DNA of 61,208 nt, the filler included, from Basidiobolus ranarum (Eukaryota), in NCBI GenBank assembly GCA_040143965.1. It is 20 parts of 20 records of this genome, joined end to end, with 100 filler letters (N's around TTAATTAATTAA, not from the genome) between each part and the next. Parts side by side here need not be neighbours in the genome. Positions count along the whole stretch, not along the records: positions 3,082 to 6,060 come from JASJQH010009691.1; 19 more parts are not named here. One strand, given 5' to 3'. The notes beneath the pieces are model-generated. The model made no database searches. It was not told the origin of the DNA and worked only from the letters and a program-made list of their open reading frames with translations. Shown here piece by piece: positions 2,982 to 56,470 of the stretch (position 1 is the stretch's first letter; every line of letters starts with the position of its first letter). The translations under genes and the position numbers were made by a program.

Positions 2982-3081
2982 NNNNNNNNNNNNNNNNNNN
3001 NNNNNNNNNNNNNNNNNNNNNNNNNTTAATTAATTAANNNNNNNNNNNNNNNNNNNNNNNNNNNNNNNNNNNNNNNNNNNN
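2982..3081. other. Artificial contig spacer (first of 19; others start at 6061, 9139, 12215, 15289, 18362, 21432, 24499, 27564, 30629, 33693, 36754, 39814, 42873, 45931, 48988, 52044, 55100, 58155)
   Basis: Identical 44 N + TTAATTAATTAA (stops in all six frames) + 44 N each time. Intervening segments decrease in length from 2981 to 2954 bp. Confidence 0.99.
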
Positions 3082-3316
3082 TAAACAAACTATTGTGTAG
3101 AATATGTTAAGGAAGGTCCCAGGAACATGTGTGCAAAGTTTGGGGCTTCTAGCACAAGTTTGAAAAATCTATATATCTGAGAACTTCTAAGTTGGCAAAA
3201 ATATTCTTAGTAATTTCCAATTGAGAATAATTGATAATATCTTAGTGAGTTATAAGATAACTAATTACTAAGTTATACACAACTATATAGGTCTTTAGGC
3301 AATGCTAATTTCAACA
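3082..3316 (-). repeat. Copia LTR family A, partial
   Basis: Reverse complement of 55460-55700; ends GCTAATTTCAACA. Confidence 0.85.
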
Positions 3317-5125
3317 GTAACTCCATGTTATCTTCACTTTTAGCAGTGTTACCAGAACTTGAAGGTTTTGTGCACATAGTACTATTGATGCTCACAGGCT
3401 TTGTGTTGAGAATGTGCCTGTGACTATCCTTTCTCTGAAGCCTCCAGCTCTCATGGCACATGAATTTGTTATGATAACTGTAGCAAATCTTTGAGCATTT
3501 GAGTTGAGGCTTGGGTAAAATATTATCTCACAAAAGGCAACATATACTACATAAGGGTGATGTTTTATGTGTATACAATCAATTTTTCAGCTGCCTCTGA
3601 GACAGTTTTGCAGATGAGGCATCAGGTGATTGTTGAAATTGGATAAATAGCAACTTGTTATTTAGTAGTTAGTTTATTCATATTCTGATTATTTTGCACT
3701 TAATTGTGTCTTTGAAAAACATGTGTTTATTGCTCTAATTGATAGAAATATCAACTAGATCACTTTACCAACTTTAACTATTTTCCCAAAAGTTCTCCAA
3801 ATAACCTCAAATCTTCACCCATACTTTACAGTAATGTTTGTGATGATTTAAGCATATTCAATAGTCCTATTTCATAATAAACTGTAAATAGGATATATCA
3901 AATGCAACAAAACTTATCTGTTTAATTCACAAATCCAAATCTTGTCCAAAACACTTCTAAATCCCCTAAACACTTTTATCAAAAATCCTGTAGGAAAACC
4001 AGCAAACAAAAGACTCTGATTGTCAGAGCCATCAACAATTGCTGTGATGATGAGTGGTTTAACATTTTGCAAATTGTGTGGACTCTTGCCCAAAATCACC
4101 TTGATTTGAGCCAATGTAGAAAAACCAAAATCCAGGCATTAGTCTGATGGTTCTTGACTTGTTTCCTGTGGCTTATCCTAAGCTTTTGCAAGCCAAAGGC
4201 AATGAGACTTGTATAGGCCTATTAACAAAACATCTCAAAAATGTACACCATTATGGACTTGGAAAAGAAAGAAAAGCAGCTAAAGAAGTACTCATGAGCA
4301 GGAAGTTACTAAACCCAAGGGAAAAGCAAAGGAGCCAGTGAGTTTAGGCTCTGCTATCCCACTAACCAAATTCTTCACACCGTTACAATCTGCATTTCCA
4401 GAGTCAGATTTTCTGGCAAAAAAGCTTAATTTCACCAAGGAACTGGGTACACCAGTTGGAAGAGTGGTAAATTTGCAAGTTTATCCAACACCTGGCACCT
4501 CTCAACAAGCCAAAACACCAGCAAATAAAACTCACAGCTGTTCAACCTCAACTGGTACTTTTCAAAGTGTTGAAATTAGCCCCAAAGCTAAAGGCAAGCA
4601 AAAAGCCATACAAGCAATGCAAAGCACCCTTAGTAGTGTCACTCTACAAGGATGTACAAAAATAGTCAAACTGCTTAAGGAGTATTTTAAAAAGTATGAA
4701 GGGAAGAATGCAGTGCATGTGTGCACAAAGTGGCTTCAGAAGTAGAACATTCAACTTGACATTTAGTCTGCTGTTGACTGTATCATGAGTAAAAATTATG
4801 AAGCTATTGTACAGATAATAATGAAGCCATGTTGCAAGTAATACAGTGTTCTGAAGCAACTAGTCATCAATTAAAGAGTCACTCAACAATAATGAAAGAC
4901 TTTCAGATTAATGTGCTTTGAACTATGGCAACATAAAGCTCTCACTGCCCAGTTTCATAATGGATTTCAATCAATCCCTTGCCACACATATGAGGATCCC
5001 CATGACAATCTAGCAGAGGAGTATGTATGTTCAACCATCAAGTCTGTACAATGGTCAAAAATTGCTTGGGCACAAGAAGTAGAAATCAAACAGGAACATG
5101 CTGGAGCAAGCTGTTTAACATAAGG
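3317..5125. mobile_element. Internal part of the CMC/EnSpm element: transposase N-terminus (minus, 3317-3461) and second ORF (plus, ~3990-5125), split by LTR B
   Basis: 3317-3461 (GNTAKSEDNMELL) matches 31940-31990 and 33070-33230. 4000-4780 matches 29550-30380 and, inverted, 40180-40770. Confidence 0.65.
3631..3981 (+). repeat. Copia LTR family B (solo)
   Basis: TGTTGAAATT...CCCCTAAACACTTTTATCA, colinear with 9783-10133. Confidence 0.85.
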
Positions 5126-5512
5126 TTTGCATTTGGCAGTTCTTGCCTCTTCAACCATGGTAAAAGCTTCATCTCATTTGACTGGCAGCCGTGACATCTA
5201 TTGCATGGCAGAATGTGTTGGAAGATATAGTCTAGCATGAGGTTCCTGTTTGCCTGTTGTGGCTTCTTCAAGAGCAGCAAGAGCTTCACTGTCTTTCTCA
5301 AACACCTGTTGTCTTGGTCTTGTGGACATATGAATTGTAATGGATTGCTGTCTTAGTAGATTGCTCTCAGGTGCCAAATCTTCATCCAACATAGTGGAAT
5401 GTTCCAAAATTTTTGCAGTTGGCTATTGTTGCTGTTGCGCAGCAGTACATGTTAAACCAGTATGGCTTTCTGGTGGCATGCTCCCTGGAACTGACTCTTC
5501 TCCAGATGTAAA

Positions 5513-5794
5513 TGTTGAAAGTCTGGTGACTTGTGGTACAAGCAGTAAATCCCAAAGAGGAAAGTATTGAGTATGGTGACTGCTTCTGAACAAAAAGTCT
5601 AAGGCCAATCAGTTGCTTGTATAGCTGAAATGCCAAAGTACCATATATTGTCACACTAGGTTAAGGTTCCCTAGCAATACAGGCATAGCATACAAGGACT
5701 GGTAGCTTAGTGGTTAGAGCACCTTGCTAGAGTGAAGGAGGTCCGAGGTTCAAATCCTGGCCAGACCAATATTTCTCCCTAAATAATTACAATA
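5513..5794 (+). mobile_element. Solo LTR carrying a tRNA-like sequence (copy 1)
   Basis: Termini TGTTGAAA...TTACAATA; perfect 5-bp TSD GTAAA (5508-5512 and 5795-5799); colinear with 57688-57968. Confidence 0.9.
5696..5768 (+). tRNA. tRNA-like cloverleaf (probable pseudo-tRNA / Pol III promoter) inside the LTR; nominal anticodon AGA
   Basis: GGACTGG-TA-GCTTAGTGGTTAGAGC-A-CCTTG-CTAGAGT-GAAGG-AGGTC-CGAGG-TTCAAAT-CCTGG-CCAGACC-A is 73 nt with A and B boxes. Single mismatches in three stems; the short variable arm does not fit a true Ser tRNA. Confidence 0.75.
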
Positions 5795-8613
5795 GTAAAA
5801 AGCTCACTGGTTAGTTTAGTTAAATCAAGTAATTTGTGCACTATGATGCATGAGAATGCAGGCCATCCTCTTTCTGGTTCTTCATTGACTGCTTGCTCTT
5901 CATCAAAAACAGGGAAAACATCACAGCCTCTTCTAAGCTGGCTTTGCTGTTGATGCGTACTACTAGCTGATGAATCAACTTATTGGGCTCTTGCCCTTTT
6001 TGGGGATTTTACCTCAATTCAAGTGGTTAGTTGTGTAGATTCTTCTTGATACCTTGTCAGNNNNNNNNNNNNNNNNNNNNNNNNNNNNNNNNNNNNNNNN
6101 NNNNTTAATTAATTAANNNNNNNNNNNNNNNNNNNNNNNNNNNNNNNNNNNNNNNNNNNNCTCTCAATCAAATCTCGGTGGATCAGCCAAATCCTTTCGC
6201 AGATTGAGGATCACGCACCTTGACACTAGTCGATTAATTGGGTGAATCGTGGATTTGAATTGTTGCTCAGGATCCCGAGTGAAAATATATTTTGACATCA
6301 GACCCCGATCCAAAAGAAATATTTGGATGATTAATTAACCTGAAGTTAAAGTGTTCCAATGAAAGCTTTCGTTTCAAGAACGGCAAAATTTCACTAATTA
6401 ACATCGACGAATGCATTTATCCAAGTCTAACCTTATGTACCATAGGGCTAGTCCATTACTATCATTGATGCTGCCTTTACAATCGAGGTGTATCTCATGG
6501 CACCAGTTTTAGCAGCTGAAGAAGTGAAATTGTCAAGTTATGAATACATGACTTCTATGCATCTGAGCATCATACCAAAAACTGTCACAGGTCACGTGAT
6601 TTAGCTACCTATAGGGAAATGTTCCGAAATTCAATTTATACTTCCCTCATGAGCATCCAACCGATCTCAGGAAGATGTGACTCCTCATTGGACTGGTCTG
6701 CAAGGAATGCCTTAATTGGCTGACTCAAAAGTAGTTGAATCCGAGAAACCTTCCCTAATATATTACCATGATCCAATCCACTGGCTAATATGCTTACAAC
6801 TTCTGTTCTGGAGTTTAAAACCCTGCTCACCAGATTCTAGGAAAGTAAAGTCTTGATATGGTAAGCAACGGTTCATCCCAGACTGATTGCTGAAGCAAAG
6901 ACCCTTCTTGAAGATCATCAACCTAATCTGATATTGGTGTGTCAATTGGCTGTCGAGTGATTGTTTAATATATGTAGATTATAGCTATGCAGATATTGCT
7001 TAAACTTTCCTTTGGTACCAAGTAAGGAAGGCACCCGAACCACAGCTCTAATCTAGAAGGCCACGACGGTTGAGTACCAATGCCGAGTGAACTGGGTTGG
7101 ATATCCTTGGATGTACTGATGAATGATATATTTGGGTTTGCATCCATCAGAAGGAATTCCTCTTCATACTATACACTGTTTAGGTAGTACAGCGGTGGTT
7201 TGGAAGATTGGAACTACACCTAAGCATGTGGCGGGAGTTTCATATGCTCTTTATACAGTGCAGCTGCATACTTTGGCTCGACCTTTTTATATATCAGTGT
7301 ACTTATTGGATGACCGAAAACCCTCAAAGCCCAAGCGGTCCTCGAGAACATCATCAATATTACGATATATCTCCGTTGAGGCCCAGAGTCAGGGCGGAAC
7401 GTTGACACACGTATGATAGAGTATAATTGCAGTATGCCTTGACACGCACCCAATTTCATTGTTTTCAATCCCAATTAGTATTCCATTTTGGATAACTATC
7501 TGATGAGTTCGATCATAGAAATGCTCTGATTGAAATATGGATGAATGAAGAGCGATCGCAGAGGATCAGCCTAATACCACAAAGGCTGAATCAGAGCTGC
7601 CAATGGAAGGAACTTTAATGCAAATTAACTATGGAGACCAAGATTAATTGCATTGGTTGCTACCCATAGCAACTCGTATTCCAGAACAAGTGAATTAGTT
7701 GCCTTGAAGCTAATTGGAATGTAAGTATTCACAGATTGCACAAATCAGACGAATCTTGCCCTTAGTGGCGCTTAGGGATATACCCTGCCAGTAGACATCC
7801 AACTAGGCAAGAATGCACCGAGTAATCTGAAAGAGTGCCGGTACACGGCCTGGAAAGAACGTGCATTCTCTCTATTGTCTTCGCCTCTTTTTCGCGTTTG
7901 GTAGCAGTGTATGGTTGTCACCCAAATTTGAATTCAATCGCCTCAACACTCTCAATTCACAATGTCGGCAATGTATGACAAACTGTTGGCTCATTGGATG
8001 AAGTCCCTGTGATCGAACGTTGACTCCTGATACCAAGCGTGGATTGCGTAGAGAATAGCGTTTGATATACCCCAATCTGTGTTGATCAGAAACCACAACC
8101 TATCTAAGCCATCCAGTACTCTTTTTCGGAACTCTTCATCCGTAATTAGGATATGACTTGATTCGTGGATCTTCCTAGTGGAGTCAAATAGTTGTTAAGC
8201 TCTCGATCACACGAGGGGTAACCAAGTCCCAAAACAATACCAAAATTATCGACACTATTGGAGGTAGCTGGAAGGCTCGGATTGTTAAGAATTCGTAGAA
8301 GACATACCATACGTTCGCCGATTAATTTAAAATATTTTAAACATCTAGAGTTTTTGGTCAACAGACTCCTAAATAGAGAATGCTTGGCCAGAGGAGGAAA
8401 TCACCCGATTCATACGGGTTCTTAAGATTGATATTACCGTTCAAGTCAGCAAATGTATCCCAAATTTGCTTGTAGAACTTCGTGACAAACCATTTCCATA
8501 AAGAATTCGATCTCTAAGGGAAAATCTTCGAATCGTTAAACTTATAAAAGCTGCGAACGATGCATGTTATTTCCACACCAAAAACAAAGTCTGAGACTTC
8601 AGTTTCTAAAGCA

Positions 8614-9138
8614 ATGATCATGTTAAAAGCTCTTCTCTCCGCTATTACCTTAGCCTGTTGTGCTATTTCTCTCGCTGATGCGCGCGTCAATTGTCCTAAC
8701 GGTAACGGGGTGTACTGTGGAAGTGTATTGGGTATGACTTTGCTTGATCCATAGCTGCTTGTGATATTATAGTTACTAATTTGTCACTTTTTACTTTTTC
8801 ATAGGCCTTAAAGCCAATTCTCTTTACGACTGCAAATCGGATCGCTGGAGCTGGAGTTATCACCCTATAGAAAGCTGCCGTAACGGCTGTGTTGTCGCTA
8901 AAGCTGGCACTCCTGATCACTGCCAAGGCGCTGATGAAACTGGTGATGACAACAAGGATGATAATGGTAATGACGGCAACGATGGCAACGACGGAAATGA
9001 TGGAAACAATGGAAATGACAAAAATGATAACACTGACACTACCAACGTTTCCAAGTTTCCTTTGGAGTTCCGCTTCAGAAATGGACAATGCACTGATTGG
9101 GCTGATGCTCGCTACGCTCAAATTACTGGTCATCATAC
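8614..9138 (+). CDS. Secreted protein: signal peptide, six-Cys N-terminal module, Gly/Asn/Asp linker, start of CHAP domain (3'-truncated by contig end); exons 8614-8731 and 8805->9138
   Basis: GTATGA...TACTAAT...pyrimidine tract-TAG intron at 8732-8804. Spliced frame is open: MIMLKALLSAITLACCAISLADARVNCPNGNGVYCGSVLGLKANSLYDC...CRNGCVVAKAGTPDHC...(DGN)n...FRNGQCTDWADARYAQITGHH. Confidence 0.85.
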
Positions 9139-9238: not shown

Positions 9239-10133
9239 TGAGAGGAATGGAAGATCTAGTTCTGGAATACTCTGGCACTCCTGACGCAGGAAAGTTTGAA
9301 GGCTACAGTGAGGGAGACTAGGTAAGAACTCTTGTTGATTGCAGAACAACAAGTGGGTACTCTTGTCTCTACGGTAATGGAGCCATAACTTGGAATAGCA
9401 AGAAGCAACCAACCATAGTACTTTCCACTACAGAAGCAGAGTATATTGCTGCCTCTCCTACTTCACAAGAAGCTATGTGTTTAAGTAAGTCATTTCTCAA
9501 CTTGGAATACATGTAAAGATGTGCTTTTACTGTAATTGATGATAATCAAAGTTGTATTTCATTAGCTAAAAACCCTACCTTTCATGCTAGAACAAAACAT
9601 ATAGATATTAGGCAGCATTTTGTTAGGGAAACAATATGGAATGATATAATTGAGCTTGTCCATTGCCGTACTGAAGAAATAATTGCTGACACCTTAACCA
9701 AACATTGAGCTAAAGCACAATTTGAGTTATTGAGATATAAGTTAGGTTTAAGAGAAATACAAAATAATTAGTTAAGTGGGAATGTTGAAATTAGGTAAAT
9801 AGCCACTCATTGGTGAGTAGTTGGTTTATTCATATTCTGATTATTTAGCACTCAATTCAGCCATTCAAACAAGTGTTTCTTGCTCTTAGTGATAGATATA
9901 TAAATTAGTTCTCTTTCACCAATTTTCACTATTTACACAAAACCTGTCCAAATCACCTCAAATTTTCACCCATACTCAACAGGCATTTTTGTTATGATCT
10001 AAGCAAGTCCAATAGTCCCATTTCATACTAAACTATAAAGAGGACATATTCAATTTGATAAAACCTTATTGTCTAATTCACAAAATCTAAATCTTGTCCA
10101 AATCACTTTCAAGTCCCCTAAACACTGTGATCA
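9239..10133 (+). mobile_element. Copia 3' end: RNase H remnant, polypurine tract (PPT) and 3' LTR B (9783-10133)
   Basis: W.SKKQPTIVLSTTEAEYIA, DNQSCISLAKNPTFHARTKHIDIRQHFVRE and ADTLTK motifs, then AAGTGGGAA directly before TGTTGAAA. Confidence 0.92.
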
Positions 10134-15388: not shown

Positions 15389-15525
15389 CTTGAGCTTTTT
15401 TGAATTCAGCATTACCTTCGGCTCTTCTGGCGTTTCCTTCTGCTGGACTTTGACCGGTACCGATAGCACTACCGACATTTTCTTTAACTTGTTCTGACTT
15501 CGATTTACATGTGATATTCTAGTCA
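15389..15525 (-). pseudogene. CsbD-like copy 1, diverged and truncated by contig end
   Basis: Frame reads VKENVGSAIGTGQSPAEGNARRAEGNAEFKKAQ, but there is an upstream stop and no in-frame ATG. Confidence 0.7.
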
Positions 15526-15676
15526 TCATTAGAGTATATATAGATTGGAACAAAGGATGATGTAATCTCAGCTACTAATTAAATGTCAGTAGGTTAACAT
15601 GTTCAACTGTGACTATATAACTCTGCAATAATCCCGGCAAATACAATCAAAACTCTTACTTTCAAGAACTAAAATC

Positions 15677-15970
15677 ATGAATAAATTCAATGCTAGCGTC
15701 AAGTCAATCTCCGGGGCCGTTAAAGAATATGTCAGTAGTGTTTTTGGCAACAAATAAATGGAAGCTCTGGGTAAAAAAGCCAGAAGAGCTGAAGGTAATG
15801 CCAAATACAAGAAAGCCCAGGTTGAAGGATATGCTCAAGGCGCTGGAGAGAAGCTTAAGGGGAATGTCAAAAACACAGTTGGCAGTGCAATTGGAAATGA
15901 GCAAATGGAAGCCGAGGGCAAGGCTGGACGTGTCAAAGGAGAGGCACGTGTAGAAGCTAATTCCAGTTAA
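15677..15970 (+). pseudogene. CsbD-like copy 2 with TAA at codon 27; downstream 70-aa ORF 15758-15970 is intact
   Basis: MNKFNASVKSISGAVKEYVSSVFGNK*MEALGKKARRAEGNAKYKK... aligns to 18021-18311. Confidence 0.85.
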
Positions 15971-16334
15971 TCAGTGCCTTCGATATCAATTTGTAAATAA
16001 ATAGAACCAATATGCTGTACACTTGCTGAATGAGAGCTCATAAACGTGGTTGACTTCAGGACAATTATGTGGATTGGTACTGAGGTTACGCAGGTGTCTT
16101 GACAGAGTGTACAGGAGTTAACTTTAGCCACAGAGGAGAATATCACTTCACAAATACCACTTGGGTAGCAGGTAAGATATATTGCCTTCACTTCAAAATA
16201 TACATTCAATACTGTGTCAATTATATACAATTTGTAAACAGAGACACAAGAGTATTCTTAACTCTTGGGCATAAAGTGGCGCTGTAGTAGATGTAATTTA
16301 TTTATTTATTTACAAAGAATAAGCAATTGGATAT

Positions 16335-16472
16335 TATTCGTTAGAGTTGGCTTCCATACGAGCTTCACCGTTGACTCTGCCCGCTTTCCCTTCAGCTTCC
16401 ATTTGTTCGTTTCCTATTGCACAGCCAGCGGTGTTCTTGACATTACCTTTAAGCTTCTCTCCAGCACCTTCA
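16335..16472 (-). pseudogene. CsbD-like copy 3, 3' half only
   Basis: EGAGEKLKGNVKNTAGCAIGNEQMEAEGKAGRVNGEARMEANSNE* with no 5' half. Confidence 0.85.
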
Positions 16473-16635
16473 GAACAAAATACTATTTTAGGTAAATTTC
16501 ATTCTGACATCACAAAAATCATTTGATCAGAAATCCCAATATAAACACTGAGGAATGCTCAGCAGTTTTACAAACATATCAACGTTCTCATCCTCAACAA
16601 CCAACTTCATACTTCAAAATATTTTAACAATCAAA

Positions 16636-16925
16636 ATGGATAAATTCAATGCTAACGTCAAGTCCACCTCTGGTGCTATTAAAAAGAATGTCGGTAGTGC
16701 CACGGAAATGAATAAATACAAGCTGAAGGAAAGGCGAGGAGAGCCGAGGGTAACGCTGAATACGAGAAAGCTCAAGCTGAAGGATATGCTCAAGGTGCTG
16801 GAGAGAAGTTTAAGGGAAATATCAAGAACACTGTTGGAAGTGCTGTCGAAAATGAACAAATGGAATCCGAAGGGAAAGCTGTTAGAGTCAAAGGTGAAGC
16901 TCGTATGGAAGCCAATTCTAATTAA
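16636..16925 (+). pseudogene. CsbD-like copy 4, full length with a 1-nt deletion near 16702 and a stop at codon 27
   Basis: MDKFNANVKSTSGAIKKNVGSA/GNE*IQAEGKARRAEG...EANSN*. Confidence 0.88.
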
Positions 16926-17411
16926 TGATCTCATGCTCTTTCTTCTTGTAAGTAAATTGGTTACATCTGCCCTATTACTATGCAGCAATATCCGAGTTAT
17001 AGAATATTCGTTTGATTTTAGCTACAAGTTTAATGAAAAGGACACGATAAATAATATAGCTCTAAGTTAGTGCCATAAGTCGCGTTCGCAATTCTGATAG
17101 TATATCATTTTCAATCCATGTAGTGTAGGAAACATGCAGAAACATAAACACATATGTTGTATTTCGGCATTCTAAAATGTGCGTGCAAATTTGCTACATT
17201 TAGTTTATTTACAAATCGATGTCAACGTTATTCGTTAACTTTGATATTAGCGCTGAATTTATTCATGATTTCAGTCGTTAACTTTTATTTATATTAGTTT
17301 TTGATAGCTTTAACTGATAGTATTACAGAATTATAAAGATACGACTACTCACGTTGATATGTTGAAATGTAATTACTTAATAACGGAGATTATAAATTAT
17401 GATTATCCATT

Positions 17412-17590
17412 GTGGACAAACTCCAAGTTAACATTAAATCAGCTTCTGGTACCGTTAAGAAATATTTCCACGGTGCTTCTTGTATCGAACAAGTAGAAGT
17501 GGAAAGAAAAATCAAAAGAATTGAGGATAACGATCAATACAAGAAAGCCCAAACTGAAGGTTATCCTCAAGGTGCCGGAGAAAAGCTATG
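17412..17590 (+). pseudogene. CsbD-like copy 5, diverged and 3'-truncated
   Basis: GTG in place of ATG; DKLQVNIKSASGTVKK...YKKAQTEGYPQGAGEKL, then similarity is lost. Confidence 0.8.
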
Positions 17591-18020
17591 TGTTAAATCT
17601 AAATTTTTATATCTTCTCGAATATCTTATTTAAATCTTATTTACGACCACTTTTAAATATTAACCTCACAATACCGTTCTTTTGTACGTATATTACTTTA
17701 TTATGCTTACCAAAGAATGGAAGCTTCATCTCAACTCTAAAGACTAATCCTATTACTAAAATTTCGTCCTACGCGGTTGCCACATCCTCAAAAACAACAA
17801 TTCCAAACTTGTCCTAAAAGGCCAGGAAAGTTAATCTGCGATCAAGAAAGAATACGAACTACACAAATCCTACTGCTATGAGTCATTTTTCGCGGTTATC
17901 TAATTTACATTATTAACAGCTGAAACTGTATTAATATCAGTATATATAGTACTGCCTTAGATATATAGGGGTTTATCAGCGTGTGCTCATTTTATTTACA
18001 ATTATTGACTGGTTCTCCAA

Positions 18021-18311
18021 CTAATTGGAATTGGCCTCCATACGAGCGTCACCCTTAACACGGCCAGCTTTGCCCTCAGCTTCCATTTGCTCATTTCCAA
18101 CGGCACTGCCAACTGTGTTCTTGACATTTCCCTTCAGTTTCTCACCAGCACCTTGCGCATAACCTTCAGCTTGAGCTTTCTTGTATTCAGCATTACCCTC
18201 GGCTCTTCTGGCTTTTCCTTCAGCTTGCATCTGTTCGTTACCGATAGCACTACCGACATTTTCTTTGACAGCTCCGGAGGTTGACTTGACGTTAGCGTTG
18301 AATTTATCCAT
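18021..18311 (-). CDS. CsbD/YjbJ-like (UPF0337) small hydrophilic stress protein, 96 aa, two tandem repeats; intact copy
   Basis: Two G.VK..VGSA.GNEQM.AEGKA.R..G.A repeats; ATG in an AAAATG context; clean ORF. Confidence 0.92.
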   Translation of the reverse strand: MDKFNANVKSTSGAVKENVGSAIGNEQMQAEGKARRAEGNAEYKKAQAEGYAQGAGEKLKGNVKNTVGSAVGNEQMEAEGKAGRVKGDARMEANSN

Positions 18312-18461
18312 TTTGATTGATAGTAGATTTTAAAGTGTGATGTTATTCGTTGATGATGAGANNNNNNNNNNNNNNNNNNNNNNNNNNNNNNNNNNNNNNN
18401 NNNNNTTAATTAATTAANNNNNNNNNNNNNNNNNNNNNNNNNNNNNNNNNNNNNNNNNNNN

Positions 18462-21431
18462 CACCATCGACTCAGGGCAAACGCCTAACTGGATCAAATG
18501 GTGAGCCAACTGGTTAGCTCTCCTATTGAGTTGGCTGTAAGTGACATATTCAGAGGTCATAAACTGCAATGCGATATTGTCCGGATGAAGATTTGCCTGA
18601 GCTTCAAATGCATGATGAAGACAGGTGCCGTGTACATTTTCATGAATAGTGGAGTGCAAGGAACCGTCAAAGTTCATTTGTGATGACATTAATTCGATAC
18701 TCAAATGTTTGAGTTTCATGTTTGCCGTTGTACTGACTAATCCTTGGAAAAGAGTTTTGAAATTAGCAGATAGCAACTCAGCATGATATGGTGAAATTAA
18801 TTGAGTGCTGAACATCAAAATATATGATAGTTCAAGATCATCTGATTCAACACATAAACCTAATGGATACTATGAATATAAATCAATGATTAGCTCAAAA
18901 CCATAGACAAAATAAGAATGGTGGCAGTTTCAAATACCTCTGATTTTTCATTACTGCCCAGTGGTACAAGTTCCAGGGAATTTCTACTACCATCAGGTGA
19001 TTGCTTAGTGGGATTTCTACTCTTAATCATGTAACTATTCTTGTAATCAAGAAGAGTATCAAAAAGTGGTGCTGTATCCGTCCAGCCTTGGATATCACGC
19101 AGACTACTTTGTTGGTAGGACAGGGAGGAAGTATGATCACTGTGAACACTTTGAAGCCACTCAATTACTGGTATTTCACCATTATAATGAATGCGGCACG
19201 CAAGCGTGTTAATGCAAGGTCCAATCATAGAAGAAGCCCCTTCCTGCTCGCCGTCTCTTCCATTGATGGTGTAGCCAAAAGTGACATCTTCACTTTGAGT
19301 GTACATTCTTAGAAGTATAGCCCAGACAGCTTTAATAAGAGTAAAGATCGTTACTCTCGAACGTTGAGCAAACTGAGCTATGTTACAGATAGGTATTTCA
19401 ATTGAGCCAGGAAGGTAAACCATTTCAGGCTTCACTTGCTCGGATACTCCAATCTTCGGAAATGGTACAGCATTCAGCTGTGCGAATTGATTTTTCCAAT
19501 AAGATTTTTCTTCTGCAATGTGGGCTGGAGTACGATTAAATAAGCTTTCAACAAAATATTTGTAAGGATATGCTTTAGAGCGTGGTTGTTGATGATAGAC
19601 CGCGTAGAAATCATCTAAAACTAAGCCCCATGAGGTTGCATCCAGAATTCCGTGATGCCAGCTAATTACAAGCACACGCTTATTCGTGCCAGTTTCAATC
19701 AGTCCTAATCTCATGTTTGGTTGACTTAAGCTAAAATGATTCTGTTTATCCGTGGTCAAGCATGTAGCAGTTGCTTCCGCGATAGAGTCTTCAGTGCAGT
19801 TGATGTGCAACCATTGAGGAGTGTAATCTCTGATAACCACCTGGAAAAAGGCGACACTACTCTCATTCATCACTGGATTCTGAACAAAGACTGAGCGTAG
19901 AATATGGTGATCATGGATAACAGTTTGCCAAGCCTCTTTGAATTTCCGCTGGTCGAAGTCACCAACTATATCAAAGGTTTGTTGCACATGGTAGTAATCC
20001 GATGATTTCAGCATTCCAGCTATAAGCCCTTCCTGTAAGTGAGTACAAGGAAGAATATCCTCAATGAGACTGGGATCAACTCCAGCTTCAAGGAGAGTCT
20101 CGTTGTAAAGCACATTAAAGTTCGATTCCGATAGTTTGAGCAATGGGAAGTCACTTCGAGTATGCTCTATAACATTCAACTGAGTGCATTGACTGATCAT
20201 TGTATTAAGAACCTGCTGCCATTTTAAAAGCCACTGAGATACAATATCTTCAGAATGTAGCGATGTACTAAAAAGAATGCTGGCTTCGAAGCTATTCTGG
20301 TTTACACCAGCCAATATATCGAATACCTGATTTCTCCTCCATTGCAGATCGACATCACCAATATCAAAATCGAAAGGCGCCTCTACAGGTTGGAAAAAAG
20401 AGTTTTGATTCTCCAATTGTTGGAACCGTCCAGAATAATTAAATACGATTTGAATTATATCTTTTTTAGGAGGGTTCTCTTGGTATAGCTTCAGATCACG
20501 TAGTAGACCGTAAATAATTCCGTTACCTGGGATAATCTTTCTCAAATCCTTGACACGTTTCAAAATAGTCAAAGGATCCTCCATTTCGTTAGCATTTACT
20601 ACCATAGGATAAATTGTGGTAAACCAGCCAATGGTTCTGGAAATATCAATATCTTCACGCCACGGCTCTCGACCGTGCCCTTCAATCCCAAGAGTCATGG
20701 CACTCAGATTGAATACTGAGCAATAGGCAATGACTAGAGAGGAGATCATCAGGTCTGTAGCTTCTGTCTGGAAGGGGATATTTGCCTTGCCAAATAATTG
20801 CTCAGTCTGAGAAGGCGTCAGTTTAAATGATAAAGATTTCGTGGATTGTAATGTATTCTGCTCTAGGAGCGACATATCACTAATTAAAGGCTCAGATATA
20901 TCTTGAATCGGCCACATGTCTATATCTAAGCTTTGAGCATACTCATCTAGCATGTAACTCCACTGCATAAAAGACATTGACTTGTACCCACACTCCTTTC
21001 CTTGTAAAAGTTGCTCAAGGTCTTCCCAGATAATGCGCCATGATACTAGGTCAATAACAAAATGATGGATTGTCATGAAAAGCAACTGCTGGTTGTCACT
21101 AGTATCGTACAAAGAAAACTGGAAAAGCGGACCGGAGAGGAGATTGAGACTATGTTGAAGTTGATGAATGCTATCTTTGAGCTCATCGGTCGATTCAATC
21201 TTGATATGTCGAGCTTCATTTTGTGCTTGTTCAATGGGCAGAATTTGGATTTTCCACTTTCCTTCTGAACAGGAAAAGCAACTGCGTAGTAACTCATGGT
21301 GGTGAATCAGAGAAGAAATAGCCAAATTCAAGCTTTCAACGGTGATAGAGTCTCTCAGCTTAAGCAGCCACGATTGATTGAAGTGATGTATGTTTTCCTG
21401 AGGAGTATTCAAGAAACGTTTCAGAATAGGA
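18462..21431 (-). CDS. Non-ribosomal peptide synthetase internal fragment: epimerization, condensation and start of adenylation domain; intron 18870-18937; truncated at both ends
   Basis: E motifs HHFVIDLVSW, EGHGRE, RTIGWFT, FNYSGRF; C motifs PCTHLQEGL, WHHGILD, IGPCINTL; A1 motif TYSQLNRRANQLAHHL. A GTATTT...GCTAAT...TAG intron joins the two ORFs as EKSE|YPLGL. Confidence 0.95.
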
Positions 21432-26625: not shown

Positions 26626-27563
26626 TGTTGAAATTAGGTAAATATCAACCCATTATTTAGTGATTACTTTATTCTTATCTGATTATTAAGAATTCGATTC
26701 TGATTCAAAGATGTGTCTTCATTGCTCTTATTGATAGAAAAATCAATTAGGTCACATTTACCAATTTTCACTATTTTTTTAAATCTTCTACAAATCATCT
26801 CAAATTTTCACCCATGATTAACAGGCATGTTTGTTACAATCTAAGCCGGGCCATTAGTCCTATTTCATAATGAAGTATAATCAGGACATATTCATTTCAA
26901 TAAAACTTAGGTGTCAAATTCACAAATTTGAATCAGGTTCAACACGCTTTCAAATCCCCCAAACACACTTATCATCTTATGAGCCCTGAGCTAGCTGTTA
27001 AAGAAATGTCAACCAGTACAATTACTAACATTTTTGCATCCACCTAGAAGTTTGATGGTGAAAACTTTTGCCATTAGAAGTTCAAGATGCAAATGGTGCC
27101 GGAAGATAAGGACCTTTAGGATTTGTTTCAGGAGAAGAAATAGAGCCATAGGGCACACCACAAGCTATTGTTGCTATTCACAAAAGCAGAGGAAAGCACT
27201 CTCTACACTTTGTCTACTTCTCAGAGACTCTCAATTGAGGTACATACAACCAGCTGAAAACATCCAACATGCTTGTGAAACATCTGAAGGACTATATAAG
27301 ACTAAAAGTCTGGCTAATAGGTTATATCTTTGGTGAAATCTGATGATTCTATGCTTAATCATATAAGTCGGATAAAAATTATGGTGGATCAGCTCTCATC
27401 CATAGGAGCACCTCTAAATGAAGATGACCTAGTCATGACACTACATGGGGCCATACAGACAAGTTTGGGAACCTCATAATTGCCCTAGAATTAAGATCAG
27501 AGCCATTAAAAATGGAATATGTTGGTGCTAGGCTTTGTATGTGGAATTAAGGAGGTCCAATTC
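26626..27563 (+). mobile_element. Copia family B 5' part: LTR 26626-26974, primer-binding site (PBS), gag; abuts another LTR B fragment (26454-26625, minus)
   Basis: TGTTGAAATTAGG...TTATCA, then (TC)TTATGAGCCCTG and gag KTKSLANRLYL. Confidence 0.88.
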
Positions 27564-28659: not shown

Positions 28660-30380
28660 TTTTTGATATATCCCATAAATACTGTACACTGATTGTGCAA
28701 CAGCATCACAGATGAGTCATCAGAGGATTTACAAAATATAATTGGTAATGAAAGGCAATTTTGGTTTACTAAAAGTTGCCTCTAATGAATTTCATCACAC
28801 CAAGGTTGCCATTGGAATATTTCAATGCCACTGAAAAAGGGTTAAATACCTGAATCAAAATTGGCTTCCAACCAAGAGCTTGCTGCCCTGAGAGAAAATA
28901 CCAGCAAGAGCAGAAGACACCATGGATGTACAGTCTAGCACTCCACTAGACACTTTGGAAGGCCTCATCATGACAGAAAATAACTCCAGTAACAACAAAG
29001 CATTAATCACCTTACCAGATGTGTTGATTTCTAGAAAGTATGCAAGTGCAGAGATTACAATCCCAAATTACATAGTCAATCAATAGTTGAGCAAAGTTTA
29101 GTAGAAGCACCATCATGGCCATCAACTTCCACAGTACCTACTTTGCCAATTATCAAACATCCCTTTGCAAACAACATTGATAGGGTTATTACAACAAGAG
29201 AATCTCAGGCTGAACACCATAATGATTTGTATGAAATTATAAGTAAATGCTACAAAGTTGTTATATAGGCCATGACAGGCAATAACACACCAATGCAGTA
29301 ATCCATGCGGCACTCTAAAGTAACTAGTCATTAGTGAGAGAGTTAGCCAACAATGATGCAAGACCTTCAGCATGATCAACTTGAGCTACAGCAACATGCT
29401 GCTCTCTCTGACCATTCTGTATGGAATCTAAATCAATTGCACACCTTACACACAAACATCACTGTAACAATCTAGCATAGCAGAATATTGGAGCAGTAAG
29501 CGGGCAAAATGACTCAAAATTGGTGTTGCAAATGAAAGTTGAAAACTCATAGGACAAGCAGCAAACCAAAAGACTCTGAGTGTGAGAGCTTCAGGCACTG
29601 TTTCTGATGTTGAATGGTTTAGCATTTTGGAAACTGGACAGATTTGTGGCCAAAATCACCTCATTTTGAGCCAATTGTGGAAAGCCAAAGACCAGGCATT
29701 ACTCAGAAGGTTCATGACTTATTTTGTGTGACTTAGCATGGGTTTTTGCAAGCAATTGGCAATTGGGCTAGTATAGGCCTATTACTAAGACATCTCAAAA
29801 GTATATGCAATTTTTGACTTGGAAAAGCAAGAAAGGCAGACTGAAATTTACTCAAGGAGCAGAAAGTTAGTAAGCCCAAGGGAAAAACAAAGGAGGTAGC
29901 AATTTTAGGCTTCACAGTCCCTCTTACCAAATTCTTGACACCATTACAAAGATATGTATTTCCAGAGTCAGATATACTGGCAAAGAAGCTTAATTTCACC
30001 ATGCAACCAGGTACACCAGTTGGAAGAGTGCTAAATTTGGAAGTTTATCCAATACCTGGCACCTCTCAACAAGCCAAAACCCCTACAAATAAAACTCATG
30101 GCTCTCCAACCTCTACTGGAACTTTTAAAGTGCCAAAGTTAGCCCAAACTTAGAGGCAAGCAAAAAGCCACCCAAACATCACAAAGCAAACCAAGTAGTG
30201 TCACACCATAGGGATGTATGAAAATAGTAAAAGTGCTTGAAGAGTATTTTCAAAAGTATGAAGGGAAAACACTGCCATAAGTATGTATAAGGTAGCATCA
30301 AAACAAGAACATTCAACTCAACAGTCAGTTTGGTGTTGATGATGCAGATATCTGGGAAGAACTTAATACAGAGTGGCACA
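28660..30380 (+). mobile_element. Degenerate second ORF of the CMC/EnSpm-like element (function unknown)
   Basis: Homologous to 31181-31850 (inverted), 3990-4780 and 40180-40770; FPESDILAKKLNFT..GTPVGRVLNLEVYP is conserved. Confidence 0.6.
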
Positions 30381-34289: not shown

Positions 34290-36753
34290 ATGAGCGGAAA
34301 CTTGGTGCAGATTGTTCCTCAATTTTCCTCTTCACGATCCTCAGTATGCTCCACTTCAGAAACGGAATCTGAGCTTTCCAGTAAATCTGATAAATCTTTT
34401 CTCTTTTGTTCCGACAGCCATTCTAAGCATTTTTTAGGTCACGAGAAACCAACACTTAAAAAACCTTCAGAGAAAATGCTGTCAAAGGATTCCTACAAAC
34501 AAGAAAAATTGAAGCCAGAAATTTCGCACAAGAAGGTAGTGAGTAACAACTCCAAAACCCTACACTTTCAGCCCAAATATACTTTCCGCAGTCTTCATCT
34601 ATTTAAGACCAAGAAGCCTAGTACTCCAACCTTAACTCGTTCGGATTCCACTTCCTCACAAATTGAAAGTGAACACACAACTCACATTGAAACTGATACA
34701 TGGAAGAAATCTGGCTGGGGAGTCCTTCATGATCTTTTCGATTCTGCTCATACTCAGTCGAAAAAACTTATTTCTCCTGAGCCAGCCATAAGTTCTATCC
34801 CCGAAGCGAAGAAAGATCCTAAGAAATTTCGTTCTCCCTTCAGAAGAAGATCCTACACTCTGGACTCTAGCTATAAGCCTTTCACTGTTGAAGAAATACA
34901 GGCCAAAAGTTCCCAAAATCGAGATAGCCCCTCTGATGAGTTTGCTACACGCCGAACGGTTTCTCTAGGAAGCGATATCCCATCAAACTCGATCTCGATC
35001 CCAAGTATATCTATTTCCGACACAGTAGAAGCCGTAGTTCCAGATATTACTGATAACAATCATTTCCTGTTCGATGACCAGGATGCTTATGATTACAATG
35101 ATGGGTTACTTGATCGAAGTTCATCTTACAGAGTTCACAGTAGAAACAACCTCAGTGGTGTCAAAACAATCGATAGAAGCAAAAGTATGGAACTCATCCG
35201 AGTCGACCCCGGTGAGTCTACGGAGACATTACCTATCTCAAGTGACATTACTAGCAAATCGACTCCTAAACCTGCTACCACTAACGAAAAGGAGCTCAAG
35301 CGATCACACAGTTTAAATGGAAAATTAAACAAACCTCTAGATTGGACGTTGAGAAAGAATTCATCTTCGGTAGATCTCGCTGCAATGAATTCTTGGGCAC
35401 AAACGGAACATGCTGACCAAGATCATCGACCACGAATCTCAGCGGTATGGGTGTTCATTACTATAGTACACCAGCTTGACTTCTTATTAATGCTGATTTT
35501 CTTTAGAGTAAAACATTCACTGCGTCGAAGCTGATGGTTCGTTTTGTTTCTTTTTGTGTGTAAGTTAGATTGATGTATATCTGGATTCTGAGTTTAATTT
35601 CTCTTGTCAACCTTAGAATATTGACGTACGGCCTGTATTTAACGAAGGGCGTTTCTATGTTGTTGATGAAATACTTACTACAGAGCTGAATTATCTGGAG
35701 AATTTGGAAATTATTCTCAATGTAACTACACTCAAATATGAACGATACTCAAATACTCGTATTCTAACTCAACTTTCCTGGTGACCTAAAGACTTTCATG
35801 ATTCCTATACAAAAGTCGGCTCAAACACCGCACCCAATTATCTCTCCTCGTGATACGAAAATCATCTTTGAAGGGATTGAACCACTTTATGAGCTCAGTC
35901 TAGAGTTATGTCAAGAATTGAAAGCAATAGTTAACCATTGGGACAAGGGGGCCCAAGTTGGTGATCTGTTCTTGAAACGTCAAAAGGAGTGGGAAATCTA
36001 TCCCCGATTTGTAGATAATTACTCTTTTGCCCGGGAGGCGATTCGAAGAGCCGAAGCTACGCACTCATTCAACAATTTCATTAAGGTTTACTTTTACTCC
36101 GATTTAATGATAATCTAGTGTATATACTCATACACCTTACCAACCTTTCTGTAGAATGTCGCTCGGAAGGCTACTAAGCGTCAAACGCTAAAGGAGTTCC
36201 TGATTATCCCTATACAGAGAGTTACTCGTTATTCATTGCTCTTGAAAGGCAAGTTAAATCTTTCCAAGATAAACCGTTTATTTTGTATAATTCTGACGAT
36301 CATCTCTATCTATCTATAGATCTCAAGAAACAAACCAAACCGGATCACCCTGATTATCGTGAGGTCGAGAGAGCGTTGGAGTTCATGACTGCTCTTGCTG
36401 TCAGAGTTAACGAAGTCAAACAACGAGAAGAGGAAAGAACCCAATTGTTTACTGTGTTCAACGCTGTTCGAGATTGTCCAGTTAGTATATTTATATTGGC
36501 TAAGTTGACCAATCCTTCTGGAATAATCCAATAACACTGCCTCTTTAGCCTACAATGATCAGCGCTAACCGTCGATTCACCCTTGAAACTGACGTTGTAG
36601 AAACACGCACCAGCCGCAAGATACACTTGGTTTTATATTCTGACTACTTAATGTTTACCACACCTTCTAAAGGGCGACCGCTTAAGCAGACTGAAAAATG
36701 GGTCTTCATACGATTGATTGATTTACGACATATCATCATGTTCAATGTGCCCG
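34290..36753 (+). CDS. Dbl-family RhoGEF (DH-PH) with long Ser-rich N-terminus; exons 34290-35444, 35507-35536, 35617-35721, 35792-36085, 36155-36248, 36320-36480, 36549->36753; 3'-truncated
   Basis: DH motifs EILTTELNYLENL, LKEFLIIPIQRVTRYSLLLKDL and PDHPDY..VERAL...VNE; PH-like HLVLYSDYLMFT. Six short introns keep the frame. Confidence 0.92.
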
Positions 36754-39913: not shown

Positions 39914-42248
39914 GTGCAAAAAACATAACTCAAATTTAAACAATTACCACTTGAAAGCTAATTTGTCATCTTTAAAAACCCTAGTCTCTTCAATATAATA
40001 TCCTGAATATTTTTATAGAGTTCTTCATACCCAAGGTTTAGCTCATGTCTAACACAAGTTTGTATTAATATCTCCATCAAAGCCTACCATTGTATTAATG
40101 TTGCCAAATCAACATTCTTCCAGCTATCTGGCAGATACCCTGCAATATTGTGCCACTCTGTATTAAGTTCTTCCTGGATATCAGCATGGTCAACACCAGA
40201 CTGAATGTCAAGTTGAATGTCCTTCTTGTGAAGTCACTTTCTGCATACTTGCACTGCATTTTTCCATTCATAATTTTGAAAATGCTGCTCAAGCACTTTG
40301 ACTATTGTTTTACATCCTTGTAGTGTGACACTACTGAGGGTGCTTTGTGGTGTTTGTGCAGCTTTTTACTTGCCTTTACCTTAGGGGCTAATTTCAACAC
40401 TTTGAAAAGCACTGGTTGAGGTTGGAGAGCCATGAGTTTTATTTGCTGGTGTTTTGGCTTGTAGAGAGGTGCCAGGTGTTGGATAAACTTCCAAATTTAG
40501 CACTCTTCCAACTGGTGTACCCAGTTCCATGGTGAAATTAAGCTTTTTTGCCACTATATCTGACTCTGGAAATGCAGATCTTTGTAATGGTGTGAAGAAT
40601 TCCACAAGTGGGACAGTAGAGCCTAAACTCACTGGCTTGTTTGCTTTTCAATTGAGTTTACCAGCTTCCTGCTCCTTCAGTACTTCTTTAGCCACTTTTC
40701 TTTCTTTTCCAAGTTGATATTTGCGCACATTTTTGAGATGTTTCAAGAATAGGCCTACACTAGCCCAATTGTCATTTGCTTGCAAAGACCCAGGATAAGT
40801 TTTCCACAATTTTTAGGGTAAGTAAATTCAATCTGAATGAGCCATTTGAGATAGGATCACTATATGAGTCAAATGGGAAGATGCTTGAAAATTTCCATAT
40901 ACCAACATATTTGACCTGGACTCCCTTCAATGTCCTCTCAACTAGGTGTCTATTCAAATGCAAAGACTGGAAGACAGGACTTATCAATATTCAAGTGGAA
41001 TCTTGAAATGCTTTTGGCCTGATATGCATTGGTAACATTGGGTGATATTTGTGTGTTTTGTTAATATATTCTTATGGTGTCACCTTACATTGGCAGATCT
41101 CAGGCAGATAGAGAAACTGTGTGAAGATTTTGAAATTGGATACAAACTGTAATACAGGTTTAAAGAAGCTAGACTCAATCTATGCTGGTGCTCAATATAA
41201 TCCCTGCTTCATCCTTCACAATGCTTAGATATTATAGGCCCTTGATATACATTCTGGAAGCTCCCAATGGAGCACACTTGCAGTGAAATGATGCTCCATG
41301 TGCAATTGTCAGTATTACCATATGCTAATCTCATAAATAATGTCTCAGTAAAATCAGTCATGGATATAATACAATGGGTTAAGGAGACTCTAGAGTATAT
41401 TAACCTTCCAACAAAGGCCTATTTCCAATATGCTAGCAGGTTATTGCATTGTTTGAGCTCAATAACAGCAACAAAACCAAATCCATAGACTCAGAGTGGG
41501 ATCTTCTATAATTTGACTAATTTGTTTGAGTGATAATATGCTGGTATTTCAGAAAGATGCAAGACACACTTCTTGGAGAGATAGATCAAGATATGCATTA
41601 TTATAGTTTTGCTATGGGGTAATCTATTAAAGCATTGACACTTCTACTTGTAACAGGACATTTGTTGACTGCAAGTTGGGTATATTTTAACTGAATTCTT
41701 TATGGTAATTTACCAAAATCCAAGAGCTTATTCTTGTTGTGTTTGGCAACAAGAGTCAGCTATTTGCAAAGTGTTAGTGCAGCTCAAAATTATCAATGTT
41801 TAGCAATTTTTCCACTACTAGTTTGCTGGTAAAGCTTATTGATGTTGTTTAGTATTGTGTGATCAGTCAAATATGTGCATATGTAGAGACCAAGCACAAT
41901 GAGATTCTTGTATTTCTTGATTCGCATTATGGCTGGAATACAGGGCATAAAATATCCAAATAAAGGCATGCATATTAATTCCAAAGCCTATAGCAGTAAA
42001 TGCCATAATTTGTCATTCAAATTTTGTTTTTTGCATAATTTTTTGGAGAATAAATAATGCATGCCAAAGATTAGGATCAATATTTTTCCATGTGTGAATA
42101 CCATCAAATGACTGTTAAAAAGCTGCCATCTCACCTTCAAAATCCTTGGCAGAATTCAAGCCATCAAGAATGTAAAGGTTCTCTGATGGTTTTGCTATCA
42201 ACAATGGTGGATCCTATCTGGATCAAATTGATTTTATTTTTCTTAGGC
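39914..42248. mobile_element. Internally deleted CMC/EnSpm copy: ORF2 (minus, to ~40770) joined to transposase 3' half (plus) and terminus
   Basis: GP.YTFW..PMEHTC region at ~41235-41285; ends GGATCAAATTGATTTTATTTTCTTAGG. Confidence 0.75.
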
Positions 42249-51605: not shown

Positions 51606-52043
51606 TGTTGACATTGATGTAGCCTAAACATCTATATAGTGAAATATGGAATAACCAAATTCTAGGCTATATAGGACTAAGATATCTCCTACTATTCTCA
51701 AGAAGAATTTACTTAGAAGTTTAAAGATACATAGATTTTGAGAAATTGTCCTAGATGCCCAAAGCTTTACACATATGTACCTAGGACTTTCCTTGATCCA
51801 TTCTACATGCTTGCTAATTTGCCTCTTGACAAAACTATAAATGTCAACTTTCTACTTAATAAATAAATATGTGAAAACCACTAATTGCTATAATTCTCCA
51901 AGCCATTTCCAACTGGCAAATACTTTACCCAGTAATTGTTGAAATTGTTGAAATTAGCATTGCCTAAACACTTATATAGTCATATATAGCTTAGTACTTA
52001 GTTTTCTTATAATTCACTAAGATATTATCAATTATTCTCAATT
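51606..52043 (+). repeat. Two tandem LTR A copies (51606-~51931 decayed; 51946-52043 partial)
   Basis: TGTTGA starts and colinearity with 55460-55807. Confidence 0.78.
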
Positions 52044-55199: not shown

Positions 55200-55807
55200 T
55201 CACCAACTACAATATTTCAAGAAAATCAAGGTTGTATCAAATTAGCTTAAAATCCCATGTTTCATAATAGAAGCAAGTATATAAGTATTAAGCATCACTT
55301 CTTTAAAGAGACTATAGAGAATAAGTATATTGACTTCACTTGTTGCTCTACAGAAGACATGATTGCTGATATATTAACCAAACCATTGGCTAGACAGAAA
55401 TTTGAGAAAGTTAGAACTTTATTAAGATTAGTTTATATGACTATTTAGTTGAGGGAGAGTGTTGAAATTAGCTTTGTCTAAGTACCTATATAGTCATATA
55501 TATCTTAGAGCATAGTTATCTTATAACTCACCTAGGTATTATCCATTATTCTCAATTGGAATTTACTTGGGATATTTTTACCAACTTCAAAGCTGTCAGA
55601 TAAATAGATTTTTTAAACTTGTGCTACAAGCCCCAAACTTTGCACACATGTTCCTGGGACCTTTTTTAACAGGTTGTACATATTTGTTTGTCTATATGTT
55701 GACAAAACTATAAATGTCAACTTTCAACTCAATAAATCAATAAGTGTAAACCACCAATTCCTGTAATTCTCCAAATCACTTCCAACCATCTCCCAAATAC
55801 TTTAACA
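55200..55807 (+). mobile_element. Copia family A 3' end: RNase H, PPT and 3' LTR A (55460-55807)
   Basis: FHNRSKYISIKHHF...MIADILTKPL then stop; GAGGGAGAG PPT abuts TGTTGAAATTAG; LTR ends TTTAACA. Confidence 0.93.
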
Positions 55808-56470
55808 AAATTTATCTCTAGGTGAAAAATATACTTAATCACAATTATTGATGCTTATAAAAGATACACTTGGGTCTATTTTATGAAAAAAAAAGAAGCT
55901 CTCTCTATCTTCAGAGATTTTAAAAACACTTGTGGAGACTCAAACTGGAATTAAATTCACAAAAATATGTATTGATAATGGCAGCAAAAATTTTTCCACA
56001 CTATTTGAGCACTTTAGCAAACTTCATGGAATTAAGCAAGAAGCCACTGGCCCCTATTCACCATAACAAAATGGAGTTGCTGAAAGAGCTAACAGGACTA
56101 TAATAGAAATAGCAAGATCTATGATTAATGCACAAAATTTATCTTATAGCTTTTGGGCAGTATCTGTTGATGCAGCTGCATATTTGAAGAATAGGAGTTT
56201 GACTAGAAGTCTGTCTATTGCTACACCTTATCAATCTTGGTTTGGAGTTAAACCTGATGCATAACTTTTGAGGATCTTTGGATGCATTCCTTATGTCAAA
56301 ATTATGACCAAAAATTGGTCTAAAATTGATCTAAAAAGTTAGAAATGCATATTTCTAGGTTATTGTACTCAAACTAAGGCCTACAGCCTCTATGATAACA
56401 AGATTTCCAGGCTAATCAAGTCCAGGAATGTTTTGTTTAATAAAAATGAAAAATTTCATTCAAAATGAAC
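55808..56470 (+). mobile_element. Copia integrase fragment
   Basis: NGVAERANRTIIEIARSM, FWA, YLKNRS and LRIFGC motifs. Confidence 0.88.

Follow-up and report, generated by a model that had tools for sequence, protein, structure and literature searches.

A short unit of 282 bp in DNA from the fungus Basidiobolus ranarum (GenBank assembly GCA_040143965.1) contains a tRNA-like sequence towards its 3' end, and the question raised by this locus is what kind of mobile element would carry such a module inside it. The window, i.e. the whole stretch of DNA that was analysed (61,208 nucleotides, filler included), consists of 20 contigs of 2,954-2,981 bp each, sorted from longest to shortest and joined by spacers of the form N44-TTAATTAATTAA-N44 (e.g. 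at 2982-3081 and 6061-6160), so that anything apparently crossing a spacer, or any distance between contigs, is an artefact. Two copies of the element lie in it, copy A (282 bp, 5513-5794, + strand) on contig 3082-6060 and copy B (281 bp, 57688-57968, + strand) on contig 55200-58154; these are truly separate loci and, because they stand on different contigs, their spacing within the window carries no meaning. We propose, with a probability of roughly 0.6, that both copies are old solo long terminal repeats (LTRs) of one Basidiobolus LTR-retrotransposon family, mobilised by Copia-type elements and belonging to, or closely paralleling, the Helenus/TRIMp3 kind, Helenus being described in the sections of Kojima 2024 drawn on here (PMC10886601) as TRIMs (terminal-repeat retrotransposons in miniature) with tRNA-like sequence in the LTR.

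The two copies are 89% identical, and when they are aligned together with 20 bp of flank on either side the identity runs from TGTTGAAA to CAATA and stops sharply at both ends, the flanks being unrelated. Copy A reads TGTTGAAAG...AATTACAATA, and the element closes with TTTCAATA or TTACAATA, i.e. TT(T/A)CAATA. An earlier note on this DNA had claimed two insertions with common boundaries at these positions, and the sharp ends of the alignment confirm it; the inverted ends that it also described are present but imperfect, as TGTTGAAA and TATTGAAA match at 7/8 positions in copy B and at 6/8 in copy A. Both copies are full length and neither has an A-rich or simple-repeat tail. Differences between them number 20 in the 183 positions before the tRNA-like module, 8 in the 73 within it and 3 in the 26 after it, and comprise 15 transitions, 15 transversions and one indel; this even spread, as dead insertions should show, indicates that both copies decayed neutrally after insertion. 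No third copy, whole or partial, was found in the window, either by blastn with 9-letter words or with an nhmmer profile of both copies. Two conserved segments of the tRNA-like module, scanned for as exact patterns, had no match in metagenome, prokaryote-genome or viral contigs. A stop-free translation of 71 aa from the minus strand of copy B, used to look for gene calls that read through further copies, had none among 1.84 billion representative proteins.

The element is a discrete unit, and at two unrelated sites, one of them within a Gypsy integrase gene, it is bordered by 5-bp duplications. Copy A lies between two identical target-site duplications (TSDs), GTAAA at 5508-5512 and at 5795-5799 (both + strand, the downstream one read directly from the sequence), and copy B lies between CAGAG at 57683-57687 and CAGTG at 57969-57973 (both + strand), which agree at 4/5 positions. 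Given the base composition of the window, chance would produce a 5/5 match with probability 0.0013, and agreement at 4/5 or better with probability 0.020. The 5-bp TSDs reported for both insertions are upheld.

The site of copy B is informative in its own right. The element entered a Ty3/Gypsy integrase just past the zinc-binding domain, leaving a left half with the HHCC domain (57437-57687, +; Pfam Integrase_H2C2 5.1e-20) and a right half recognised by translation (57974-58154, +; ...IYVSWEFITDL...), which contains one in-frame stop and reaches the end of the contig. When copy B and one duplication are deleted, the frame resumes at 57974 and a single open frame is restored, ...LLQPLSIPNQQ[W/R]IYVSWEFITDL... 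(...CDTCAQVQAPRHQPYGLLQPLSIPNQQ[W/R]IYVSWEFITDLQLP...), in which a Trp codon comes from CAGTG, the downstream one of the two duplications. Tryptophan at that position is conserved in integrases of this type, and the upstream duplication CAGAG has probably mutated since insertion. No empty-site paralogue of the flank of either copy is present within the window. The contig that holds copy B (55200-58154) is a piece of nested transposon wreckage, with, in order, the C-terminus of a Copia-type pol followed by an LTR of the family here called fam1, a Copia integrase fragment, and the 5'-truncated Ty3/Gypsy reverse transcriptase-RNase H-integrase region that carries copy B.

Within the element lies a tRNA-derived module with both box A and box B motifs. 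In copy A it occupies 5696-5768 (+), i.e. element positions 184-256, with the anticodon AGA, and in copy B 57871-57942 (+), with the anticodon AAA; ARAGORN, run over the whole window, called these two modules and no others. An Infernal-type tRNA check, suggested by the earlier note, places both copies above the Rfam gathering score of 29 bits for RF00005 (49.9 bits for copy A and 33.8 for copy B), with the model covered end to end (1-71) in 2/2 copies. The A and B boxes of copy A, at 5703-5713 and 5747-5757 (+), read TAGCTTAGTGG and GGTTCAAATCC, those of copy B read TAGCTTGGTGG and GGTTCAACTCC with one change in each, and the Helenus motifs that we tested, TRGCY...YGG for box A and GGTTC for box B, are conserved in both copies. 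A permissive Rfam scan of copy A gave, besides the tRNA, only one sub-threshold chance match. A scan of the region for sigma-70 promoters and terminators, which is irrelevant to a eukaryote, gave nothing.

The module had been claimed to form a complete cloverleaf about 185 bp into the element, and of this the outline, the boxes, the start (at position 184) and the passing of the Rfam model all hold, but the pairing is imperfect. In copy A, 18/21 pairs are standard, the mismatches being 3-70 A.A, 31-39 G.G and 50-64 G.G; copy B likewise has three non-standard pairs of 21, two of which, 3-70 and 31-39 in copy-A numbering, it shares with copy A, and in addition its A14 is changed to G and its T arm has lost one nucleotide. 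The AGA anticodon of copy A, nominally that of serine, sits on a class I body with a 5-nt variable loop. Serine tRNAs are class II molecules, for which a long variable arm is needed. Judged by its mismatched stems and by the disagreement in isotype between anticodon and body, the module is not a working tRNA.

An LTR-like identity for the element is supported by its termini, which agree with the ends of Copia-type LTRs from this assembly. In the window its 5' octamer, TGTTGAAA, is found 22 times where 6.5 +/- 2.5 would be expected, and none of 100 shuffles reached 22; two of these sites are the element copies themselves and 10 are starts of two multi-copy LTR families, fam1 and fam2. A fam1 LTR of ~350 bp (55460-55810, +) starts TGTTGAAATTAGC and ends ...CTTTAACA; it directly follows the C-terminus of a pol gene (...TEDMIADILTKPLARQKFEKVRTLL...stop) and a purine tract, GAGGGAGAG. 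The pol piece itself (55251-55445) matches no Pfam family and is named Copia-type from its motifs and from its alignment with the fam2 case. Other fam1 copies, used as comparators, lie at 13361-13008(-), 3316-3082(-), 48718-48393(-), 48344-48018(-) and 51946-52043(+). The ends of fam1 copies read CTTTAACA, CTTCAACA, CTTCAACA and CTTCAATA, that of a fifth having diverged, and the fam1-like LTR at 48344-48018 (-) ends in CAATA where its relatives end in CAACA. At 51937-51953 an LTR start, TGTTGAAAT, is tandemly doubled (TGTTGAAAT TGTTGAAATTAGC) and adjoins the 3' part of another fam1 LTR (51725-51927).

The fam2 LTRs are of similar size (~345 bp) and start TGTTGAAATTAGG. The copy at 9783-10128 (+; end approximate) is preceded by a Copia-type pol C-terminus (...TKHIDIRQHFVRE...ADTLTKH, stop) and the purine tract AAGTGGGAA, and further copies used for comparison start at 3631(+), 26626(+), 26432(-) and 54757(-). 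Those at 26626(+) and 26432(-) are followed by copia-type gag (Retrotran_gag_2 1.3e-07); as 5' LTRs (26626-27000, +, and 26432-26090, -) they stand head to head, ~190 bp apart. Directly after the 26626(+) LTR comes TTATGAGCCC / TCTTATGAGCCCTGAG, which looks like a primer-binding site (PBS), putatively complementary to the initiator tRNA-Met at its anticodon stem-loop, in the manner of Ty5/copia-style priming.

The 5' octamer of the element equals the starts of both fam1 and fam2 LTRs, with 10 nt identical in the case of the 26432(-) copy, and the element's 3' end, TT(T/A)CAATA, resembles the TTCAAYA of fam1. Element and resident LTRs are alike in this octamer, in the fam1-like 3' end and in a similar length, whereas they show no likeness between the tips, and the element alone has a tRNA-like part, neither ARAGORN nor Rfam detecting one in fam1 or fam2 LTRs. 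We read the common tips as mimicry of the ends that the integrase of a Copia-type partner would recognise, a suggestive rather than a settled interpretation.

Taken together, these data favour solo LTRs of a Helenus-like family, for which the following life cycle can be proposed. The active form would be a short element consisting of an LTR, a PBS, an internal part, a polypurine tract (PPT) and a second LTR, and its transcription would proceed from the tRNA-like promoter in the 5' LTR, with a start at the tRNA-like +1. On such a start, the RNA would begin at about LTR position 184, making R/U5 the last 99 nt, and, since there is no T run later in the LTR, the transcript would cross the internal part and then the 3' LTR before reaching a T run farther on; in copy A the first run of at least four T residues comes 203 nt past the LTR end, in copy B 102 nt. 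Proteins of resident Copia-type elements would then reverse-transcribe and integrate the element in trans, making the 5-bp duplication, a partnership suggested because the element copies the Copia LTR tips (TGTTGAAA...TTCAAYA), and later LTR-LTR recombination would leave a solo LTR. The description of the copies in the earlier note as solo LTRs of a retroelement stands as far as their LTR-like character and Copia-type tips are concerned; their Helenus-like character is likely only, and the non-autonomy and Pol III drive that the note also proposed are conjectural.

Several observations weigh against this interpretation. Only two copies are seen, both solo with the TSDs directly at their ends, and no PBS, PPT, second LTR or internal part is seen with them; their 282-bp length is near that of resident Copia LTRs (~345-350 bp), and they could belong to a full-length element. 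Only in the tips does the element resemble these Copia LTRs; nhmmer detects no further similarity, and the 3' end of fam2 (TTATCA) is unlike that of the element. Both copies begin with TG but end in TA, the canonical LTR termini being TG...CA. In fungi, TSDs of 5 bp are compatible with a Ty3-type Gypsy partner as well as with Copia. The cloverleaf of copy A (-16.0 kcal/mol) is not the minimum free energy fold (-19.1 kcal/mol), and the minimum free energies are no better than those of shuffled sequences (z 0.47 and -0.32), on which ground thermodynamic folding was rejected as support for the cloverleaf. Lastly, TTTT is indeed absent from the sense strand of both copies, as had been claimed, but the absence is uninformative: 37-42% of element shuffles and 420/2147 background windows of 282 bp lack it likewise. 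As the lack is not significant against either, we discarded it as evidence for read-through by RNA polymerase III (Pol III).

The length and the tips also bear on a second explanation, in which an autonomous or large non-autonomous element of Copia type captured a tRNA-derived piece in its LTR, for instance a small short interspersed nuclear element (SINE), and the copies are its solo LTRs; Pol II would then transcribe from the U3 part, and the module would be a passenger or a signal in chromatin or RNA processing. We think this unlikely, though far from negligible. The 282-bp LTR falls within the size range of the resident Copia LTRs, with which it has its tips in common, and in copy A a TATA-like CATATATTG is found 35-43 nt before the tRNA-like start. 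Also in copy A, TACAA immediately precedes the tRNA-like part and recurs at the LTR end, which hints weakly that something inserted into the LTR long ago. Moreover, 'not a few' of the LTRs in Repbase are said, in the sections of Kojima 2024 drawn on here, to hold part of a tRNA, only some of them being TRIMs (PMC10886601). Against capture stand two weak points, drawn from only 59 kb: no Copia or Gypsy fragment on the 20 contigs carries the element LTR, and the whole tRNA body is kept with both boxes, which is the pattern of miniature elements in the published survey, as far as those sections describe it (PMC10886601).

The inverted ends and the internal promoter each suggest a further class of element. 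A miniature inverted-repeat transposable element (MITE) with 8-bp imperfect terminal inverted repeats, a 5-bp duplication and an incidental tRNA-derived piece would account for the 7/8 match of TGTTGAAA and TATTGAAA in copy B, and a few cut-and-paste superfamilies (Transib- or Ginger-like) would be compatible with the size and with a TSD of 5 bp. Yet the inverted repeats span very few bases and do not match perfectly, the same 5' octamer opens LTRs that stand right after a Copia-type pol and purine tract or before copia gag, the 3' end resembles that of fam1 LTRs, and no transposase-related sequence was noticed in the selection of open reading frames that was scanned; we regard a MITE as improbable. 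Still less credible is an unusual SINE, or another retroposon dependent on a long interspersed nuclear element (LINE), with a 183-nt leader before its tRNA head. The hallmark of tRNA-type SINEs is a tRNA-derived module that has A and B boxes, as set out in the Discussion of Kojima 2024 (PMC10886601), but here the module is internal, the 183 nt upstream of it are common to both copies, and transcription by Pol III from the tRNA-like +1 would leave them uncopied under a SINE mechanism. The lack of an A-rich or simple-repeat tail, the fixed ends of two full-length copies and the fixed 5-bp length of the duplications in 2/2 cases point the same way, and the earlier judgement that the element is not a SINE was sound.

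The surroundings of the two copies are rich in retroelements. Copia-type fragments crowd most contigs (matches to RVT_2, Retrotran_gag_2 and SH3_retrovirus), and a single Ty3/Gypsy fragment is present (RT_RNaseH_2 and Integrase_H2C2); the base composition of the window is 36% G+C, with a CpG observed/expected ratio of 0.34. A RhoGEF exon at 35768-36115 (Pfam RhoGEF 2.7e-12) has 99% identity to a Basidiobolus ranarum protein and 79-82% to B. meristosporus proteins. One whole contig (18462-21431, minus strand) is occupied by a fragment of a nonribosomal peptide synthetase (NRPS): an 846-aa stop-free frame at 18893-21430 (-) with two condensation-domain stretches (Pfam Condensation 4.7e-92) leads into the beginning of an AMP-binding domain (18462-18869; 6.6e-09). 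Among named proteins its best relatives come from Basidiobolus ranarum, with no more than 37-44% identity (37% for the 846-aa frame), and next come bacterial and other fungal NRPSs. A repeat of 0.6-0.8 kb recurs on three contigs (3991-4777, 29550-30339 and 40189-40799(-)) at 78-85% identity; its copy at 3991-4777, which comes after a fam2-type LTR (3631-3981) on the second contig, contains a frame of 153 aa (4284-4742) that matches no Pfam family, and the repeat possibly represents the internal region of an LTR element of the non-autonomous kind. On contig 15389-18361, several CsbD-like frames (MDKFNANVKSTSGA...) on both strands (Pfam CsbD 3.9e-22 for 18024-18329 (-)) suggest a small inverted or tandem gene cluster. 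Finally, a low-complexity, coding-like tract at 8780-9136 with Gly/Asn/Asp repeats (GNDGNDGND...) is made of imperfect 18-27-bp tandem repeats.

How far the element extends what is known depends on the published range of Helenus. The statement in the earlier note that tRNA-bearing TRIMs had been reported under this name is correct, and in the sections of Kojima 2024 drawn on here the fungal hosts are only Pucciniales and three Agaricomycetes; the screen used Repbase seeds and was widened only to relatives of the seed genomes, and its main text, within those same sections, mentions neither Basidiobolus nor Zoopagomycota nor Mucoromycota (PMC10886601). Literature searches found nothing that links Basidiobolus, or Zoopagomycota, with tRNA-like LTRs or TRIMs, and for TRIMp3 the 2024 study was the only relevant paper found; the accessible parts of later papers citing Helenus add no new hosts.

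If the family is confirmed genome-wide, the range of Helenus/TRIMp3, with its rusts and mushrooms, would come to include an early-diverging lineage of fungi, which would support repeated origin. We hold more tentatively, at odds somewhat short of even, that this is the first Helenus-type miniature LTR retroelement, tRNA-promoted and parasitic on Copia, outside Dikarya, and that it arose independently in Basidiobolus and copies the LTR tips of its Copia partner rather than the internal part. Were that so, LTR parasites with Pol III promoters would evolve repeatedly where tRNA-derived retroposons and Copia elements coexist, and some of the predicted 'tRNA genes' of early-diverging fungal genomes would be LTR modules. 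As ARAGORN and Rfam call these LTR modules as tRNAs, tRNA counts for genomes like that of Basidiobolus could be inflated, as those of rust fungi are by Helenus modules according to the same sections of Kojima 2024 (PMC10886601). The element opens no new class and settles no open question; what it provides is a family whose shared LTR tips might reveal how a partner is recognised.

Among known systems, tRNA-derived SINEs (SINE2) resemble the element in their tRNA-derived head with A and B boxes, and such a SINE is a possible source of the module; the sections of Kojima 2024 drawn on here propose that the Helenus module came from a SINE insertion into an ancestral LTR (PMC10886601). SINEs, however, begin at the tRNA head, are tailed and have variable TSDs made by LINE machinery, whereas the element has 183 nt before the module, no tail and 5-bp TSDs. 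Closer in architecture are Cassandra, a plant TRIM with 5S rRNA in its LTR, and Ajax, a nemertean TRIM with a 5S promoter fragment, which, as described in part of the literature on them, likewise hold in the LTR a Pol III promoter module that originates in a small-RNA gene. Their module is 5S-derived where that of the element is tRNA-derived, and the host kingdoms differ; Cassandra, besides, keeps a Pol III terminator past the 5S part, in contrast to the element LTR, which is without a T run there.

The nearest likeness is to the fungal members of Helenus/TRIMp3 (e.g. LTR-1_PTrit and Helenus-9_PSt), for which the comparison again follows the sections of Kojima 2024 drawn on here (PMC10886601). 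Both have tRNA-derived sequence in the LTR with the conserved motifs TRGCY/YGG for box A and GGTTC for box B, and the 282 bp of copy A fall among the Helenus LTR lengths given there (120 to 323 bp). TSDs of Helenus are 5 bp in fungi and plants, as in the element, and 4 bp in animals; the fungal members reportedly leave numerous solo LTRs flanked by TSDs, and Copia is the inferred partner in both cases. Predicted Helenus anticodons mostly disagree with the tRNA body and the modules are not working tRNAs, a picture that fits the AGA (Ser) anticodon on a body with a short variable arm and three mismatched pairs; AGA 'Ser' is also found in rust Helenus (Table 2 of PMC10886601). Pol III transcription of Helenus is itself unvalidated, according to that author (PMC10886601). 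The element differs from Helenus in its host, Basidiobolus being an early-diverging fungus and not one of the Pucciniales or Agaricomycetes, and in the place of its resemblance to Copia, which lies in the LTR tips and not, as in Helenus, in the internal part and PBS; it is also known here from solo copies alone, and is likened to Helenus by its features and not by its sequence. Every feature of Helenus that is visible in two solo copies is nonetheless found in the element. The class of tRNA-bearing LTRs has been in print since 2024, and what is new here is the host lineage together with the similarity of the tips to those of Copia LTRs.

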